Shown: piece by piece, positions 5,244 to 54,943 of the stretch | Layout of the letters: each line of letters begins with the position of its first letter | How positions within the stretch are numbered: position 1 is the first letter of the stretch | NCBI GenBank assembly: GCA_963767115.1 | Contig: CAVYCR010000005.1 | Span: forward strand, 89,582-153,581 | Direction of reading: 5' to 3' | DNA: 64,000 nt | DNA from: Candidatus Kaiserbacteria bacterium | Lineage (GTDB): Bacteria > Patescibacteriota > Minisyncoccia > Phycocordibacterales > UBA2100 | Notes under the pieces: model-generated | The model's input: only the letters and a program-made list of their open reading frames with translations | The model's database searches: none | Told to the model about the DNA's origin: nothing | Made by a program: the position numbers and the translations under genes

Positions 5244-5744
5244 TTATGTACAGATAGTGACGCTCGCGGCGAGGTTTGTGCTCTCTGCCTTAGCATCGCC
5301 GTTGCTGTCTACGCACCACATAGAAGGCGTGCCGTTTTTGGATGCGGAGAGCGGAGTCTCTGCGGCCCATGCTGATCCACTGTCGTGACAAGTTACGTTG
5401 TTCCAAGCGCCTGCGGTTGCCGCTGTCGTATTGAGCGTTCCTGCACTTGCAAGCTGGCTGTTGGCCTGAGTCTGAGCTCCGGCAAGGATAGTGCCTGCGC
5501 CTGCGGGTGTGGCGGAGCCGAGTGCTGCGCAACCGCCCGTATAACTATTAGCATTGCTCGACGCATAGAGCTCCATCTGAGAACGAACGCTATCCATATC
5601 GCTCTTGACGCCTGCATCAACTCCCTTGCTGCGCGCTGTCGCAAGCGAGGCGAGAATGATGGCGGCCAAGATGCCGATGATGGCGATCACCACGAGAAGC
5701 TCGATGAGGGTGAAACCTCGATTACGATTAAATGATTTCTTCAT
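5244..5744 (-). CDS. type IV pilin (major-pilin-like), tandem paralog 2
   Basis: MKKSFNRNRGFTLIELLVVIAIIGILAAI. Very similar to 4521-5039 along its full length. Confidence 0.85.
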   Translation of the reverse strand: MKKSFNRNRGFTLIELLVVIAIIGILAAIILASLATARSKGVDAGVKSDMDSVRSQMELYASSNANSYTGGCAALGSATPAGAGTILAGAQTQANSQLASAGTLNTTAATAGAWNNVTCHDSGSAWAAETPLSASKNGTPSMWCVDSNGDAKAESTNLAASVTICT

Positions 5745-43084: not shown

Positions 43085-44881
43085 ATGGGAGCACAAAAGA
43101 TGACCAAGAAAACAGGTGCGGCAACGCCCTCGCTGATCAAAGAGCAGCTGCTTCCCGAATTCGCTTTCGTCGGATACTGCAACAGCGATGACGCGAACAA
43201 ATACACGTCGAGAGCTAAGACCATCGATATCCAGTTCGTACGCGCCGCGCGAGATGAGGGTCTGCTCATACCCCTTTATTCGGCAGAAGGGCCCGTACGC
43301 AAGCCGGATGGGAGCGTCAATAACGAGATCGTCGATTACTATAGCCCGCTTCAATTTTTCATAGTCACTCAGCTGCGCAAGAATATCGTTCTGAATGGCA
43401 GATTGTGGGACCCTGAGACTGTCGAGTGGTACCCAGAGAAGCCGATGGAGGAACGACCGCGATTTATTTCATGGGGAGGAGGATTTTCATTCTCACCAAG
43501 GGATGTCGGCGATCCGGCACGCAAAAAAAGTGACGACGTCCTGTTCAACGCGTATTTATTCACGGCGACATTCGATGCCCTTCTCCGCTTTATCCATGCA
43601 ACACCATTGAAAGACAAGTACAAAATGCCGATGGACGAAAGTGATATGTTCGAGAGTGTTGCGACATTCAATCATGATCTGACGGCAGTCGTTTCGATTC
43701 CTGATGAATTAAAGCAGTATCGGCTCGATGCGAAGAAACTTAATTTCCTGAGGGCACATATCGCTCAGGCTGCGGCAGTTATTGACCCCCTCGAACTCTG
43801 GTATTACTACATCGACCGGCACCCGAATTCAAAGAAGAGCTTCCTCAAGGGCGACGCGCGAGTCGCGCAAAAGCTCTACAAAATCTACAATCTCATTACC
43901 GACGTCTGGCAACGAGTGACAGACGAGGAATCCAAACCACTTCTCGAACTCGTCGCAGGAGAAATCGGCAGTGGATATCTCACTCCACGAACGGAGTATT
44001 TGCATGGCATGGATGTTCAGGCAATGCGGCATAGTATCAATGGCTTTACTGTATGGAGTCGTATTCGAGGTAACGGTAAATATGTAACGGCGCAAATCCG
44101 TGAAGCGCTCGCCAAGGCTGTGACCGATTTAGACGACTTCGAAAAGCGATATGGCGATCGCAATTACGGCGGCAACTATCGTATACGAGAAGATCACGGG
44201 GTACGGTACGATCAGCTCGACAATGTCTCAAAGGCACGTTTTGACCAATGGCGTCTGCAACGTCACGATGCGGAAGAATGGGAGACAATCGAAGACGTTA
44301 TCGACTATCGCATCCATGAGATACAACGTGCATTGTCGACGGCGTACCATGCTGTCGGTTCACAACTACGTAACATCACCGCTGAGGCATGGGATATGCC
44401 GAAGCATTTCAATCATACATTTTGGATGCAACACCCCGTAATGTCTCAGGAAGAGCGAATGAAAGTGTTCCAAAAGGAGTCAAAGCGACTTACCGCTCAT
44501 GCGCGCGCCTGTCAGGAAAAAGAGCGCGAATTCTGGGGAGCTGTCTCATCAACGCGACTCGCGTTTTGTAAGATCTGCCGCAAACGGCCGATCCAGCTAC
44601 ACGCCGACACACGCAGTTTTGACTCACAGCCATCGATTTGCGATACGTGCGTGAAGGAAAAGAAGACGTATCCCGATACTACAAAAGGCGCGGAGTGGCT
44701 ATGTGATTCCTGTGGTCACGTCATTTACAAATTCGTTCATGGAAATACGTTAAGCGCACGCACACAGACCGGCACAGCAGTCGTGATTGAATTGAAATAT
44801 GGGAACCTCTTAGTCGAAGCGACGTGTCCAAAATGTAAAAATACCTTTGAGAAATCAATCGAATTCGGGTGGCTACCATGA
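43085..44881 (+). CDS. hypothetical 598-aa protein with C-terminal zinc ribbons
   Basis: CKICRK..CDTC and CDSCGH..CPKC pairs. Divergent from the R-M gene. Confidence 0.6.
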   Translation: MGAQKMTKKTGAATPSLIKEQLLPEFAFVGYCNSDDANKYTSRAKTIDIQFVRAARDEGLLIPLYSAEGPVRKPDGSVNNEIVDYYSPLQFFIVTQLRKNIVLNGRLWDPETVEWYPEKPMEERPRFISWGGGFSFSPRDVGDPARKKSDDVLFNAYLFTATFDALLRFIHATPLKDKYKMPMDESDMFESVATFNHDLTAVVSIPDELKQYRLDAKKLNFLRAHIAQAAAVIDPLELWYYYIDRHPNSKKSFLKGDARVAQKLYKIYNLITDVWQRVTDEESKPLLELVAGEIGSGYLTPRTEYLHGMDVQAMRHSINGFTVWSRIRGNGKYVTAQIREALAKAVTDLDDFEKRYGDRNYGGNYRIREDHGVRYDQLDNVSKARFDQWRLQRHDAEEWETIEDVIDYRIHEIQRALSTAYHAVGSQLRNITAEAWDMPKHFNHTFWMQHPVMSQEERMKVFQKESKRLTAHARACQEKEREFWGAVSSTRLAFCKICRKRPIQLHADTRSFDSQPSICDTCVKEKKTYPDTTKGAEWLCDSCGHVIYKFVHGNTLSARTQTGTAVVIELKYGNLLVEATCPKCKNTFEKSIEFGWLP

Positions 44882-44948
44882 TGCTCCTTGAAGGATGAGC
44901 TGCGGGATTATTCGGGTATTTCGAACCTCGATTTTATAAATCTATACT

Positions 44949-45989
44949 TTATATCCCAGCTTCTTCCCTTAATCCTCTCGCATTGCCGTGGCCCAATAAT
45001 CCCCGATAAGATTGACGGACCACTTCGTTTTCCTGTTCTCCCAATTTCCGAAACATTCGGCGTTTTGTGGCAGTCCGAAGTACGCGATGGTCAGGAAAAT
45101 GCACCCACCCGAGGAAATCGACGCCCGAGGCGAGCGAACTGATAAACAGCTTGTTGGGATGAAGCGAGAGTTTGAGGCGCAATTCGAGAAACGAGGCAAT
45201 CTGCGGGACGAGCGTTTCAAGTTTTTCTTTGTCGTCTGAAAGAATCACGAAATCGTCTGCATAACGAATGTAGCAGTTCGCTTTTACCTTGTGCTTCACG
45301 AATTGATCGAACTCGTTCATGTATACGTTGACGAGCAGTTGCGATGTGAGATTGCCGAGCGGAAGACCCTTTCCTTTTTCAGTTGTGTGGAAGCTTCCTA
45401 CAATTTCTGCAACAAGATTGACGATACGTTCGTCTGGAATATATCGTGCAACTATTTCAAACATTATGGCTTGGTCGATCGAAGCGAAGAACTTTCGTAT
45501 GTCGCATTTTAAAACCCAGCACGTTTGCGTTTGATTCTTTGAAACTATCCATGCCATCGCGCGAAACCGATTCATCGCGCGATGCGTTCCCTTGTCTTTC
45601 CGACACGAATACGAGTCGGCAATAAACGTGCGATTGAAAAACGGAAAGAGCTTCCGATACAGTGCGTGATGTAGAAGCCGATCACACACGCTTGCCTTAT
45701 GTATGTCGCGCGGCTTCGGCTCGGCAATCTTGAAGGCGTGGTATTCGCTATGCCTATATACGCCGTTAGCGAGGTCTCGATGGAGCGCAAGAATGTTATC
45801 CATCAGCCGGTATTGGAATTCCTGCACGTCTTTCTTCTTTCTTTTGCCGCGTAGGAATTCCTTCCATGCGGCGAGCAAGTTTTCGACAGAAATGATATCG
45901 TCATAGTTATGACCGAAGTGGATGCCTTTAACGTACCCCCCCCCCGCACGAATCTTGCCTGTTATTGAGCATGGAGTATCAGTGTACAA
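44949..45989 (-). CDS. diversity-generating retroelement reverse transcriptase
   Basis: DGR hallmark LGNLTSQLLVNVYMN (I/LGxxxSQ) and YIRYADDFVIL. Adjacent TR, VR and Avd. Confidence 0.9.
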   Translation of the reverse strand: MYTDTPCSITGKIRAGGGYVKGIHFGHNYDDIISVENLLAAWKEFLRGKRKKKDVQEFQYRLMDNILALHRDLANGVYRHSEYHAFKIAEPKPRDIHKASVCDRLLHHALYRKLFPFFNRTFIADSYSCRKDKGTHRAMNRFRAMAWIVSKNQTQTCWVLKCDIRKFFASIDQAIMFEIVARYIPDERIVNLVAEIVGSFHTTEKGKGLPLGNLTSQLLVNVYMNEFDQFVKHKVKANCYIRYADDFVILSDDKEKLETLVPQIASFLELRLKLSLHPNKLFISSLASGVDFLGWVHFPDHRVLRTATKRRMFRKLGEQENEVVRQSYRGLLGHGNARGLREEAGI

Positions 45990-46302
45990 GCAGTGGCATG
46001 AATACCGAGAGGACTTTCCAAAATCATCCCGCTATACACTCGGCGACAGGATAGACCTTCTTTTTGTTCATATTCTTGAACTACTATTTACCGCAAGTTA
46101 CCAAAGCAAGGAAGCGAAGCTGCCGACACTCGAGATGGCGGTACGAAAAATTGACGTATTGAAATTCCTGTTACGCGTCGCATGGGAGCTTCGGGCACTC
46201 GACACGAAAAAGTACGCGGTGCTATCGGAAAAATTAGATGAATTTGGTCGAATGGTCGGCGGTTGGAAGAAAGGACTGGGAACCAAAACTCCCGCCAGAT
46301 AG
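45922..46302 (+). CDS. avd: Avd-like accessory variability determinant (four-helix-bundle, 23S rRNA IVS protein family)
   Basis: ..FPKSSRYTLGDRI......ILE....A.......K...L......ID.LK.LLR.A.EL......KY..L...LDE.GRM.GGW.K pattern. 126 aa. Confidence 0.75.
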   Translation: MPLTYPPPARILPVIEHGVSVYKQWHEYREDFPKSSRYTLGDRIDLLFVHILELLFTASYQSKEAKLPTLEMAVRKIDVLKFLLRVAWELRALDTKKYAVLSEKLDEFGRMVGGWKKGLGTKTPAR

Positions 46303-46328
46303 TAGAGGCGGGAGAAACTCGGTAGTTT

Positions 46329-46443
46329 CGGGAGAGAGAACCCGATTGCCGGCGTTCCACCTGTTGTCGTCGCGGTTCCACGTGTTCACGTTCCACTTCG
46401 AGTTGTCGGCGTTCCAGTTCACGTTCACGACACAGGAACTCTC
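46329..46443 (-). other. DGR template repeat (TR)
   Basis: About 113 nt collinear with the VR. It encodes the AAC-rich SSCVVNVNWNADNSKWNVNTWNRDDNRWNAGNRVLSP. It differs from the VR only at its adenines. Confidence 0.9.
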
Positions 46444-46757
46444 GTATCCGAAGCCGTCTGTGCCACCACCCATCGAATACTCTACGGGCTGTATCTGATT
46501 CGGGGCATCGAAGCCCGCTGACCTCGGATACCAACTGACCAATGTTTTTGTGGAGACCGGCTACGCACACTTCCTTAAGCCGTGGCCGAAAGAATTCTAA
46601 CGAAGCCGTTTCCGAAATCTCCGCGCTCAAGCCTTAACCGGAGCGCCACCAGAAATTTCATATGTAGTATATCAAAAAGAAAATCCCCGGGCCCAGTGAC
46701 AAAGTGTCAAAGGGTCCGAGGATTCAGCTCGCCAAGGGCGAGCAAAGGTGCAGAGGG

Positions 46758-47417
46758 TCAGTTGGCGGGAGAGAGAACCCGAACGCCGGCGCTCCACCCG
46801 AGGCCGCCGCGGTCCCACGTGTTCACGCCCCACTTCGAGCTGACGGCGCGCCAGAACACGAACACGACACAGGAACTCGTGTAGAACAGGTTGGCGTAGC
46901 CGTTGTTCAGCAAATCGCCTTCCTTGCCCTCGGGCTGTTTGGAGATCATCTCGGCGACGACGGCGCACAGCGCGCCCTCGTCCCAAAGGTGATTCTTGGG
47001 CAAACCGTTTTCGATTTCCTTGTCCGTCAAGTCCGCGCCGAGTTCATCGACATTGACCTTGAAGGTAGTGCCGGTGTTGATCGGCTTCGCCAACTTGACC
47101 ACGCGAGTCTGGAAGTCGTCCCAGACGTAGAGTCCGTCGCGCGTCTTGAAGAAGGCGTCGGGGTTGCGATGGTCGGAGTCGGTAATCGTGATGGAAAGCT
47201 GCGGACGGCGGATGAGTGCCATCATGCTCTTAATTACATCTTCGATAGCGGTTTCGAGCCGTCCCGCGAGGATTTCGGTCTTGTCCTTGATCCCCGCGAG
47301 CACCACCTTGGGATCGCCGAATTTCGCGGCGACTTTCGGCAATGCGACCGCGAGCGCACTGGTAACGTTCGAGTTGAGTTCGGCCATCTGGCCGGGACTG
47401 AAGGCTGTTCCACTCAT
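46758..47417 (-). CDS. DGR variable (target) protein
   Basis: The C-terminal 38 aa are encoded by the VR. It is a paralog of 13531-14004. Confidence 0.85.
   Translation of the reverse strand: MSGTAFSPGQMAELNSNVTSALAVALPKVAAKFGDPKVVLAGIKDKTEILAGRLETAIEDVIKSMMALIRRPQLSITITDSDHRNPDAFFKTRDGLYVWDDFQTRVVKLAKPINTGTTFKVNVDELGADLTDKEIENGLPKNHLWDEGALCAVVAEMISKQPEGKEGDLLNNGYANLFYTSSCVVFVFWRAVSSKWGVNTWDRGGLGWSAGVRVLSPAN
46766..46880 (-). other. DGR variable repeat (VR)
   Basis: Offset +437 from the TR. There are 19 substitutions, all at TR A positions (plus-strand T), and 0 at the roughly 85 non-A positions. Confidence 0.9.
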
Positions 47418-47593
47418 GGTGGCTGTTCCTTACAAGTGCTGCTGGTTCCTCGGCGATTCCAAGGTTTGCCTCAGCGGAAAATGCCCTCAATGTAAGGCGC
47501 TTTCAGCTGTGGCAAAGACCCTTTTTCAAAGAACAGAGACTGGTATTATAATACAAATAGAAACGATACGCAAGTACCCGCGTATTGGCGAAC

Positions 47594-47623
47594 TTGCATC
47601 ATAAATGTCCTGTGATGTATAAT
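47594..47623 (+). promoter_or_regulatory. candidate sigma-70 promoter (TTGCAT-18 nt-TATAAT)
   Basis: TTGCAT at 47594-47599 and TATAAT at 47618-47623. Confidence 0.4.
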
Positions 47624-47678
47624 TCAGGGACAATTCAATAGCTACCTACGCGGTAGCCGCGGTGGTCGAGAGAAAGGA

Positions 47679-47723
47679 CCGCCAACGACCTGAGCTTTTT
47701 TGCTCGGTTGTTGGCGGTTTTTT
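47679..47723 (+). terminator. terminator/attenuator hairpin with T6 tail upstream of the ParB-methylase gene
   Basis: ccgccaacgacctgagc / gctcggttgttggcgg stem followed by tttttt. Confidence 0.5.
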
Positions 47724-47775
47724 GCTGCCTTCAGCCCCACAAAGCTCAGGTCATTAGAAATGTAATGACCAATGC

Positions 47776-49065
47776 ATGAAAAAAGTAACAAAAACGAATC
47801 TCACATGGAAAACGGAAAAGCGCATCATCAGCCAGCTCATCGGCCACCCGAAGAACCCGCGCAAGATGAGCGAATCGCAGATGCGGAATCTTCAAGAAAG
47901 CCTCAAACGGTTCAATCTCGTCGAGATACCTGTAGTGGATACCGATAACACGATATTGGCTGGACACCAGCGGTTGAAAGCGATGCAGCTTGCCGGACGC
48001 GGCGAGGAAGAGATCGACGTGCGCGTACCCAATCGAAACCTCACCGAAACAGAGCGCGAGGAGTATCTACTGCGCAGCAACCAAAACACGGGAAGCTGGG
48101 ATGAGGAATTACTCAAAGCGATGGACATGGACATGCTTCTCGACGTCGGTTTCGGCGACGACGAGCTGCAAACCATCTTCGATGATATCGATGTCATCGA
48201 GGACGATTTCGACGTCGAAAAAGCGCTCAAGGAGACAAAGGTTGCTCGGGTAAAACCAGGCGAACTGTGGCAGCTCGGCAGCCACCGTCTCCTCGTGGGT
48301 GATTCAACCGATGCCGAACAGGTCAAAAAACTGATGGGTACCGACCGAGCGGATGTCGTGTACTGTGACAGCCCGTACAACATCGGACTCGATTACTCGA
48401 AAGGAATCAGTACCGGCGGCAAATACGAAGGTACCTACACAAGCGCGAAAGATTCCAAGAAAGACGTGGCCTTCGGCGCATTTCTCGATGCGAGCATGAA
48501 AGCCGCGCTCTCCGTGGCCAAGCCAAACGCACACCTATTATATTGGTGCGACGAGAAGTATATCTGGCTCCTGCAATCGCTGTATCGAGAAAATGGCATC
48601 GACAACAAACGCGTCTGCCTGTGGATCAAGAACAACTTCAACATGACTCCGCAGGTCGCATTCAACAAGGCATACGAGCCGTGCGTGTATGGAGTTATCG
48701 GCAAGCCATATCTCAACAGTGAACTGCGCAATACCAACGAGCTTCTGAACAAAGAGATCGGATCAGGTAATCAGGTGCACGAGGAAATCCTCGACATATT
48801 CAATCTCTGGCTGGCACGTAGGGATAACGCGCAATCATATCAGCACCCGACTCAAAAGCCGGTCGCGCTCAACGAGAAGCCACTGAAGCGTTGCAGTGCT
48901 CCGGGACACATCGTGCTCAGCGGCTTTGCCGGTAGTGGAAGCGATCTCATCGCATGCGAACAGCTCAATCGCAAGTGGCGGGGTGTCGAGATCGATCCGA
49001 TCTTCGCCACCGTCTGCATCGACCGGTGGGAGTCCTTTACCAACCAACGCGCGACACTCATATGA
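47776..49065 (+). CDS. ParB-like nuclease domain fused to an N4/N6 DNA methyltransferase
   Basis: ParBc motif ..HPKNPRKM...L..SL..F.L...PVV......ILAGHQRL, then DSPYN, HPTQKP and FAGSGS methylase motifs. Confidence 0.85.
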   Translation: MKKVTKTNLTWKTEKRIISQLIGHPKNPRKMSESQMRNLQESLKRFNLVEIPVVDTDNTILAGHQRLKAMQLAGRGEEEIDVRVPNRNLTETEREEYLLRSNQNTGSWDEELLKAMDMDMLLDVGFGDDELQTIFDDIDVIEDDFDVEKALKETKVARVKPGELWQLGSHRLLVGDSTDAEQVKKLMGTDRADVVYCDSPYNIGLDYSKGISTGGKYEGTYTSAKDSKKDVAFGAFLDASMKAALSVAKPNAHLLYWCDEKYIWLLQSLYRENGIDNKRVCLWIKNNFNMTPQVAFNKAYEPCVYGVIGKPYLNSELRNTNELLNKEIGSGNQVHEEILDIFNLWLARRDNAQSYQHPTQKPVALNEKPLKRCSAPGHIVLSGFAGSGSDLIACEQLNRKWRGVEIDPIFATVCIDRWESFTNQRATLI

Positions 49066-49811
49066 GCGTCGAGCAAGGAGATATCTTCTCCGTCGGTGAG
49101 CACATCATCGCGTGCGGCGATTCGCTCGATGCGACATTCGTGAGTAAGGTCATTGGAGACAAAAAGATCAGATGCATTCTCGTTGATCCCCCGTACGCCG
49201 TCTCCTACGTCGAGGGCAAGCGAGATTTCAACAAGCTGGGCGTGAATACGGACAAAGCGATCATCGGCGATCAGCTGCAATCCGACGAGGAATACGCTCG
49301 CTTCACGGGAGCGTGGCTCGAGGCGGTAAAGCCGCACCTAGAGCCGTACAATGCCTGCTACATCTTCAACAGCGATCTTATGTACCCTGCGCTGCGCCAA
49401 GGCATGAAGGATGCCGGGTTCTATTACTCCCAAGGTCTGATATGGATCAAGAATACGGTTGTCCTCGGCAGGAAAGATTATCTCCCCATGCACGAGCTCA
49501 TCGCGTACGGCTGGTGCGGCAAACACAAGATGGAACGCAGCAAAGCAAAAAGCATACTCTTCCACCCAAAACCAGCTGCATCGAAACTTCATCCCACACA
49601 GAAACCCATCGGACTCCTGCGTAAATTGATACCGAATTCGACGCGCCTGAGAGACTACGTGTATGACCCCTTCTTAGGCAGCGGGAGTACCGCTGTCGCC
49701 TGCGAGCACCTCGGCCGAAGGTGTGTCGGGATAGAAATTGATCCTGCGTACGCGGGAATTGCAATAGCGCGTATGGAGAAGCTCACCGGACTTGTCGCGC
49801 GAAAACTATGA
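49062..49811 (+). CDS. N4/N6 DNA methyltransferase (beta class)
   Basis: VDPPYA, HPTQKP and DPFLGSGST motifs. ATGA overlap with the upstream gene. Confidence 0.85.
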   Translation: MSVEQGDIFSVGEHIIACGDSLDATFVSKVIGDKKIRCILVDPPYAVSYVEGKRDFNKLGVNTDKAIIGDQLQSDEEYARFTGAWLEAVKPHLEPYNACYIFNSDLMYPALRQGMKDAGFYYSQGLIWIKNTVVLGRKDYLPMHELIAYGWCGKHKMERSKAKSILFHPKPAASKLHPTQKPIGLLRKLIPNSTRLRDYVYDPFLGSGSTAVACEHLGRRCVGIEIDPAYAGIAIARMEKLTGLVARKL

Positions 49812-54691: not shown

Positions 54692-54746
54692 CATAACTGG
54701 CGCTCAAAATAGGACTCTGCATAGCACCGATAAAAAGTACTACGGG
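54692..54746 (-). repeat. tRNA-Ser 3' flank (reference copy of the att-like repeat)
   Basis: See the copies at 37220-37301 and 39261-39317. Confidence 0.65.
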
Positions 54747-54834
54747 CGGAGAGGCAGGGATTCGAACCCTGGGAACCCTTTAGAGGTTCAACACATTAGC
54801 AGTGTGCTCCATTCGACCGCTCTGGCACCTCTCC
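54747..54834 (-). tRNA. tRNA-Ser (anticodon GCU), class II with long variable arm
   Basis: Hand-folded: acceptor GGAGAGG/CCTCTCC, anticodon stem GCACA/TGTGT with loop CTGCTAA, T-arm CAGGG-TTCGAAT-CCCTG. 88 nt. Confidence 0.9.
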
Positions 54835-54943
54835 GTGTCGTTGCATCGTACTCTATCATGGCGTTCTCTTCAATGCTTAATGATTACTTAATAGACCAGT
54901 GGTCAAAATGAAGAAAATACGGTATTGTTTAGAAATTCTAACT

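Follow-up and report, generated by a model that had tools for sequence, protein, structure and literature searches.

Phase variation by simple sequence repeats (SSRs) is a classical mechanism. In contingency loci such as hmbR, hpuA and pilC of Neisseria, the poly-G genes of Campylobacter jejuni and the tetranucleotide-repeat genes of Haemophilus, a repeat of non-triplet units lies just after the ATG in a length-tolerant N-terminus, the gain or loss of one unit turns the gene ON or OFF, the length varies between otherwise identical sequences, and the open reading frame (ORF) is otherwise intact. The G-tract of a Bifidobacterium breve pilus is a further example (PMC9187656). Corresponding sequence features were found, the length variation in relatives, at a locus in a 64-kb stretch of DNA from Candidatus Kaiserbacteria (the window; contig CAVYCR010000005.1, 64,000 nucleotides), where a run of ten C on the plus strand, G10 on the minus strand, lies in the head-to-head overlap between avd and the reverse transcriptase (RT) gene of a diversity-generating retroelement (DGR). 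This C10/G10 run is probably an SSR contingency locus that gates a DGR of the candidate phyla radiation (CPR). Unlike in the classical loci, the gated function would be a diversity generator rather than a surface antigen or modification enzyme, the host is a free-living or episymbiotic environmental CPR bacterium rather than a pathogen, and two overlapping genes read the repeat, one on each strand.

The divergent fimbrial genes hifA and hifB of Haemophilus influenzae have overlapping promoters in which a (TA)n spacer sets the −35/−10 spacing, and promoter-spacer repeats are also found at Bordetella fim and Neisseria porA/opc, as well as at hif itself. As at hifA-hifB, a single repeat at the present locus would control two divergent genes at once; however, the hif repeat acts on transcription, whereas the repeat in the window's subgroup is located inside both reading frames and would act on the frame of translation. 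Phasevarions, in which DNA methyltransferases are SSR-controlled, resemble the locus in that a stochastic repeat switch sits above a system that itself alters many phenotypes or variants, giving a two-tier diversification, but instead of acting epigenetically, the effector here would retro-mutagenise a single target gene by targeted A-to-N changes. The DGR of Bordetella phage BPP-1 (mtd-avd-TR-brt) is built of the same parts, namely an RT, a four-helix Avd, adenine-specific mismatches between template repeat (TR) and variable repeat (VR), and a VR at the 3′ end of the target; no repeat tract, overlapping starts or phase switch has been described for it. The term "homopolymer" is absent from both Wu et al. 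2018 (PMC5758913) and Roux et al. 2021 (PMC8144416), and "phase varia" is absent from the latter. A search for DGRs in combination with homopolymers, phase variation, SSRs or poly-G found no relevant paper, with Paul et al. 2017 on CPR DGRs lying outside that search. Thus, the SSR switch on a DGR, its CPR-wide conservation and the reading of one repeat in two antisense frames appear to be undescribed.

The element in the window is a genuine DGR, because its ORFs match the Pfam profiles RVT_1 (RT, E = 1e-23) and bAvd (PF22296, E = 8e-15, residues 25-118 of Avd), and because a TR/VR pair of 118 nucleotides (nt), 82% identical, has 20 of its 21 mismatches at TR adenines on the minus strand. The VR is located inside the target ORF (46758-47417, minus strand), at its 3′ end. 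The order TR (46446-46329, minus), avd (45909/45922-46302, plus) and RT (45972/45989-44949, minus) fits the B3 layout TR-(avd)-RT of the CPR, in which avd stands inverted between the other two; Wu et al. 2018 (PMC5758913) report this layout for 90% of CPR DGRs. Hundreds of relatives' RTs that stand next to avd and a TR in metagenome-assembled genomes (MAGs) of the CPR are 61-79% identical to the window RT. No match was obtained by blastn of the DGR region against GenBank phages. The features needed below are as follows.

45936..45945, both strands: C10 (plus) / G10 (minus) homopolymer, the proposed switch, matched in 133 of 153 related loci by a homologous, perfect run of G7-G13
45909..45911, plus strand: family-conserved avd start codon ATG, antisense to the RT His27 codon CAT
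45893..45901, plus strand: putative extended −10-like element TGATATCGT, 7 nt upstream of ATG 45909, within RT codons D-D-I-I
45922..46302, plus strand: avd ORF as assembled, begun at an alternative ATG, in frame at C10, with the Avd body (LPVIEH...) from 45955 onward
45970..45972, minus strand: probable canonical RT start ATG of the window's subgroup, antisense to the Avd His of LPVIEH and 27 nt upstream of the tract
45981..45986, minus strand: −10-like hexamer TACACT of a putative RT promoter, 8 nt upstream of RT ATG 45972
44949..45989, minus strand: RT ORF as assembled, opening with TTG at 45989; its conserved body occupies the part below about 45911
46329..46446, minus strand: template repeat
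46758..47417, minus strand: DGR target gene, with the VR (46766-46883) at its 3′ end

The run of ten C that the initial annotation had placed at 45936-45945 is exact, as read directly from the sequence (plus strand ...GGATGCCTTTAACGTA-C10-GCACGAATCTTGCC...). It is the only homopolymer of at least 9 nt in the window, for which the base composition predicts about 0.15 G/C runs of at least 10, and it is a slippable tract as defined here, that is, a perfect repeat, at least 7 long for G/C, near the 5′ end of an ORF or in a promoter. An avd ATG at 45922 and an RT ATG at 45989 had been described as overlapping by 68 nt; the avd codon and the length of the overlap are right, but the RT codon is TTG. 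The tract does encode Pro6-8 of the assembled avd ORF and Gly16-18 of the assembled RT ORF, and a recheck of the RT frame again gave no ATG, GTG or TTG from the tract to YDDIISVENLL. The starts 45922 and 45989 themselves are probably not the family-conserved ones, since comparison with relatives favours 45909 for avd and 45972 for the RT; the tract begins 27 nt after each of these. With regard to the uncertainty that had been attached to the tract length, the sole further assembly of this DNA (L091, Logan ERR11630394), which is the same sequence as window 43368-49302 and 100% identical over 5.9 kb, also has C10 and is not independent.

The comparison drew on 171 related loci, nearly all of Patescibacteria/CPR origin. 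With the RT protein as query, 10 viral loci were retrieved, along with 80 from metagenomes and 80 from genomes. Loci were oriented on the RT and anchored on its Y-x-D-I-I-S motif; 153 had enough upstream sequence for comparison. Almost all matches of the genome scan were Patescibacteria/CPR MAGs (Kaiserbacteria, Paceibacterota, Taylorbacteria and others), and this CPR placement agrees with DGR clade 2 of Roux et al. 2021 (PMC8144416). The perfect runs at the equivalent position comprise four G7, 16 G8, 43 G9, 40 G10, 22 G11, six G12 and two G13, and two more loci have G6. Immediately 5′ of the run stands GGCAAAAT, which is Avd I-L-P read in antisense; the RT motif follows the run at a distance of 19-49 nt. 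Across 875 kb of flanking sequence there are just ten further G/C runs of at least 8, several of them artefacts; runs are enriched about 100-fold at the site over its flanks. Of the 18 loci without a G run of at least 5, eight hold another simple repeat at the site: (GT)7-10 in L036, L057, L109, L139 and L156, (GA)6 in L161, (CTGG)9 in L075 and (GGCGGCT)6 in L154. The repeat units at the site are thus of 1, 2, 4 or 7 nt, none a multiple of three and all frame-shifting. The repeat as such appears to be selected, its position being kept while its sequence and unit turn over, and the comparison proposed in the initial annotation shows it to be retained across about 150 diverged CPR DGRs.

Some relatives lack a repeat. 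In L041/L119, L136, L188-191 and L193-195, avd begins directly at M-(x)-LPV, and some repeat-free relatives read TPPPLLPVV from a decayed CCCCGCCGCCGC; these look like "locked-ON" derivatives. Distant relatives in the viral-contig collection (L001-L007) likewise have no repeat. Such tract-free viral relatives first suggested that the tract was a one-off insertion, a reading that was overturned by the metagenome and genome scans. In the nearest relatives of the window avd (about 90% amino acid identity; L172 1100-1290 and L173 400-590), the tract is interrupted, C4TC5 (CCCCTCCCCC), and avd is one base out of frame with the conserved ATG; it is possibly an OFF allele that has become stabilised.

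An ATG on the avd strand upstream of the repeat is conserved. Two residues ahead of the Tyr in Y-x-D-I-I-S, the RT has a His whose codon is CAT in 131 loci and CAC in 2, against 1241:1210 for His codons in the same RT bodies (p = 4e-36). The antisense of CAT being ATG, the avd-strand ATG is under strong selection and favoured even over GTG. A hexamer of the TATCNT type (A2, T6) was found at a fixed distance from this ATG in 103 of 117 loci, and RT wobble positions are fixed in such a way as to form TGnTATCNT exactly 7 nt upstream of it: Asp is GAT in 76 loci and GAC in one, codons for other residues there likewise have a final T, and Ile is ATC in 119 of 141, while the Tyr wobble between these two fixed positions is free (71:71). 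TGnTATCNT may therefore be an extended −10 promoter that makes a leaderless avd mRNA. No Shine-Dalgarno sequence is evident at the proposed starts. The RT codon at −3 from the motif Tyr (window 45912-45914) has a wobble T in 111 of 143 loci, with which avd codon 2 begins with A (mostly Ser AGT), a further constraint at the nucleotide level.

Anchoring on the conserved ATG resolved the frame states of avd; a first analysis that accepted any upstream ATG, GTG or TTG had scored about 40% of loci as "ON" and was uninformative. Among 110 de-duplicated loci, the conserved ATG is in frame with avd in 21 (19%), and the two out-of-frame phases are equally frequent (44 and 45). A change of one repeat unit was found to restore an uninterrupted Avd of 127-150 amino acids in all 83 evaluable OFF loci (+1 in 41, −1 in 42), six further OFF loci running off their contig. 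The OFF loci are therefore not decaying genes, and pseudogene decay is ruled out as an explanation. In the window, ATG 45909 is out of frame at C10 (MTEVDAFNVPPPRTNLACY*) and in frame at C9 or C12 (MTEVDAFNVPPPARILPVIEHG...), the C9 product being MTEVDAFNVPPPARILPVIEHGVSVYKQWHEY.... By the conserved starts, the assembled C10 is thus most likely an OFF allele, not an ON allele.

The window (ATG 45922) and L187 (ATGTTAC-C12) each have a second ATG, in another frame, just upstream of the tract, so that an Avd ORF results in two of the three length classes, with differing N-termini. Some Haemophilus lic genes are known to have strong, weak and off levels of expression, and by analogy the variants of the Avd N-terminus could correspond to such levels.

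The RT start falls into three classes. In 58 loci there is an in-frame ATG downstream of the tract (M-x-R-I-Q-F-x-H-x-Y), 22 loci have only GTG or TTG there, and 31 loci, including the window, have none. In this last group, the length class that turns avd ON also gives an ATG-begun RT ORF through the tract in 30 of 31 loci, as compared with 14 of 62 for the other two length classes of the same loci (Fisher p = 1e-12) and 10 of 58 for the avd-ON class of the downstream-ATG group (Fisher p = 5e-14). These contrasts indicate that the coupling of avd and RT frames is kept specifically where the RT would need it. The RT ATG of such loci is found either at −53 to −56, with TAGAAT 7 nt upstream, or at −26, with TATACT, TATAAT or TACAAT 8 nt upstream; the window is of the latter type (TACACT), and its assembled TTG start at 45989 sits upstream of TACACT. 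RT ATG 45972 is in frame at G9 or G12 (MLNNRQDSCGGGYVKGIHFGHNYDDIIS...) and meets a stop after 14 codons at G10. The RT of L163 is naturally in frame at G9 (MLNNRQNPLGGGYSRNQFTHTYENIIS) and matches the window RT at G9, and the N-terminus MLN[ND]RQ..GGG is shared by the window, L163, L092, L099 and L071. The dual-ON state of the window is therefore most likely n = 9 or 12, the assembled n = 10 being OFF for both canonical frames. The arrangement is symmetrical, with the avd and RT starts 64 nt apart at C10 and each nine codons before the run. If both leaderless starts are real, the avd and RT mRNAs converge from promoters inside the partner gene (45909-45972) and their first 64 nt are perfectly complementary, which would allow transcriptional interference or antisense pairing on top of a frame switch.

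The tract was proposed in the initial annotation to be a single switch for avd and the RT, and this is supported by site conservation, turnover of the repeat type, length differences among relatives, one-unit repair and frame coupling, all of them computed results, as are the conserved ATG and the frame statistics. Its extension to one switch for the whole DGR would hold for the window's subgroup but not for about half of the relatives, in which the RT starts downstream and avd alone would be frame-switched.

Length polymorphism was observed between otherwise identical sequences. L084 and L143 are identical over 3262 nt save for G9 in the one and G10 in the other. The five contigs L183-187, each from a different sample, differ over 1808 nt at the tract alone: L183-186 have G11 with Avd in frame, unlike L187, which has G12 and is out of frame. 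The dinucleotide repeat of L057, (GT)8, is ON and that of L139, (GT)9, is OFF in sequences 99.4% identical. L118 (G11) and L126 (G9) differ in addition at a second poly-G elsewhere (L118 3404-3413, G10; L126 4090-4098, G9), which abuts a perfect TATAAT with an ATG 6 nt further on, and L118 has a third G10 at 5253-5262; poly-G beside −10 elements may be a general device for phase variation in CPR genomes.

The tract also affects assembly and annotation. Of 81 contigs with their upstream end within 3 kb, nine end no more than 100 nt from the motif, some of them inside the run, where about three would be expected per 100-nt bin if ends were even, although other bins are enriched too. L094 has an N gap at the tract together with C41/C12 (637-791), and the contig starts of L011, L019, L040 and L068 lie inside the run or show end runs of G16 and C36. 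Such breaks and misjoins fit either heterogeneity of length at the read level or sequencing difficulty. Around the tract, gene callers were found to truncate avd (80-114 amino acids) and the RT (171 amino acids in L091; 286 amino acids) among L091 and L174-L198, and public annotations can therefore be expected often to fragment these DGRs or omit avd. Where an identical called RT spans the tract, equal length is forced, and look-ups of P0069 and P0076 were uninformative in this respect.

In the mechanism proposed, the ATGs of avd (45909, plus) and the RT (45972, minus) would flank the tract, each probably marking the very start of a leaderless mRNA. During replication, slipped-strand mispairing would alter the run by ±1 and so shift both starts simultaneously into or out of frame with the protein bodies. 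Avd and RT would both be ON at C9 or C12, with the predicted N-terminal peptides MTEVDAFNVPPPAR... and MLNNRQDSCGGGYVK... from the canonical starts. At C10 the canonical frames would be OFF, only the alternative avd ATG 45922 and TTG 45989 being in frame. As cDNA synthesis requires both proteins, the tract would stochastically gate A-to-N mutagenesis of the target gene. We infer that slippage takes place in DNA rather than in RNA, that leaderless promoters drive both genes, that the window's population switches, and that a logic of cost and benefit lies behind it. The broader proposition is held with less assurance, at chances slightly better than even: that in most CPR DGRs the first dozen avd codons include a conserved, hypermutable repeat, which in one subgroup also falls in the initial RT codons that overlap it in antisense, and that such DGRs are subject to a heritable stochastic ON/OFF switch that is mostly OFF (about 80% of assembled alleles).

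Several observations weigh against these proposals. In-frame alleles are rarer than the one third expected by chance (19%, binomial p = 0.001), a deficit that could reflect selection against an active DGR, expression by slippage at the RNA level, or the use of other starts. Alternative starts are in frame in the window at C10 (ATG 45922, TTG 45989) and in L187 at G12, and therefore "OFF" may be leaky or a different level of expression. On the RT strand, every replacement repeat is rich in G, so that a function dependent on composition keeps some plausibility. The start codons and leaderless promoters are deduced from wobble conservation and geometry, and a generic promoter and terminator scan of the window showed nothing at the tract. 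Tract lengths can also be stable, as in L178-182, where all five samples of one population have G11. Several pairs with identical flanks are equal in length, some of these being one contig recorded twice, and in metagenome contigs of low coverage the length of a homopolymer may be called wrongly. In the population of the window, C10 is the sole allele seen, in assemblies only; no second allele was found, and a pattern of exact flanks with a variable tract was unmatched in the viral contigs.

The in-frame deficit is also what would be expected under non-heritable recoding, in which an out-of-frame DNA allele together with slippage is the normal mode of expression. By this account, slippage of RNA polymerase, or of the ribosome at CCC-C/GGG-G shifty codons with polyproline stalling, would make the tract an attenuator that gives a fixed low fraction of Avd and RT whatever the DNA length. 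Transcriptional slippage is feasible on tracts of the length seen here (mode 9-10), and the constancy of G11 in five samples of one population is in line with it. However, homopolymer-type slippage is not expected on the di-, tetra- and heptanucleotide replacements, on which slipped-strand mispairing of DNA is; the equal frequency of the +1 and −1 phases is fitted by no single programmed shift; and the length differences between otherwise identical contigs are heritable. Recoding is thus an unlikely substitute for the DNA switch, although the two are not exclusive and could operate together.

A role as a sequence-specific or spacing element, either as the −35/−10 spacer of an RT promoter or as an RNA element of the TR-RT transcript, with its position in the reading frames incidental, is quite improbable as a full account. 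Its best case is the downstream-ATG group, in which a −10-like TAnnnT hexamer abuts the tract in 37 of 62 loci (background 4.5%), the RT ATG usually stands 13 nt after the tract, giving the geometry G(n)-TAnnnT-N7-ATG, and a −35-like TTGCGA or CTGGCA is found 15-21 nt upstream of the −10-like hexamer. The polymorphic poly-G (G10/G9) abutting TATAAT elsewhere in L118 and L126 is a similar arrangement. In the window's subgroup, by contrast, a −10-like hexamer abuts the tract in only 3 of 37 loci, near background, and the window itself does not have the promoter-spacer layout, with no promoter-like site around or spanning the tract. A spacing role would also leave unexplained the conserved avd ATG, the repair of all 83 OFF loci, the non-triplet units and the coupling of avd to the RT, and the substitution of unrelated repeats is hard to square with a role in RNA pairing. 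As for the downstream-ATG group, its tract may in addition be an RT promoter spacer, which is more likely an additional layer than an alternative to the frame switch.

That the tract does nothing, having arisen by chance, through errors of assembly or sequencing such as two-colour poly-G, or as the by-product of selection for a Pro-Pro-Pro/Gly-Gly-Gly motif, is scarcely credible and effectively refuted by conservation, frame statistics and enrichment: plain poly-G/C artefacts do occur at contig ends or scaffold gaps in L011, L068 and L094, and codon-aligned Pro3 opposite Gly3 would alone force a homopolymer, but more than 130 independent assemblies, produced by many projects, place the tract internally and between conserved flanks, the site stands far above its flanks in run frequency, the run is perfect in roughly 80 loci where avd alone reads it and CCN wobble would be free, its length of 7 to 13 makes the peptide inconstant, and the conserved-ATG frame usually loses register and stops within about 60 codons, giving no full-length Pro-Pro-Pro Avd.

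The regulation of DGR mutagenesis is largely unknown, and a frame switch at this site would provide a concrete mechanism for the largest environmental clade of DGRs (CPR/Patescibacteria). If it is real, the activity of DGRs should follow their tract-length class in metagenomes, many DGRs that were scored as inactive or have "truncated" avd or RT calls would be phase-OFF rather than dead, and gene callers would be systematically misplacing the starts of both genes. The CPR bacteria would join the users of SSR contingency loci, with a two-tier form of bet-hedging in which a mutable switch is set over a mutator. A single repeat that frame-switches two genes on opposite strands would be rare, and if two overlapping leaderless genes read it from either side, their regulation would be compact to an unusual degree.

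Elsewhere in the window, no Rfam family was matched over the 64 kb. The sole tRNA is a tRNA-Ser(GCT) at 54744-54835. Two adjacent ORFs for an N6/N4 DNA methylase (PF01555; 47776-49065 and 48954-49811) overlap by 112 nt in different frames. The pair (47776-49811) may be two genes or one gene split by an indel, assembly indels having been flagged in the initial annotation.

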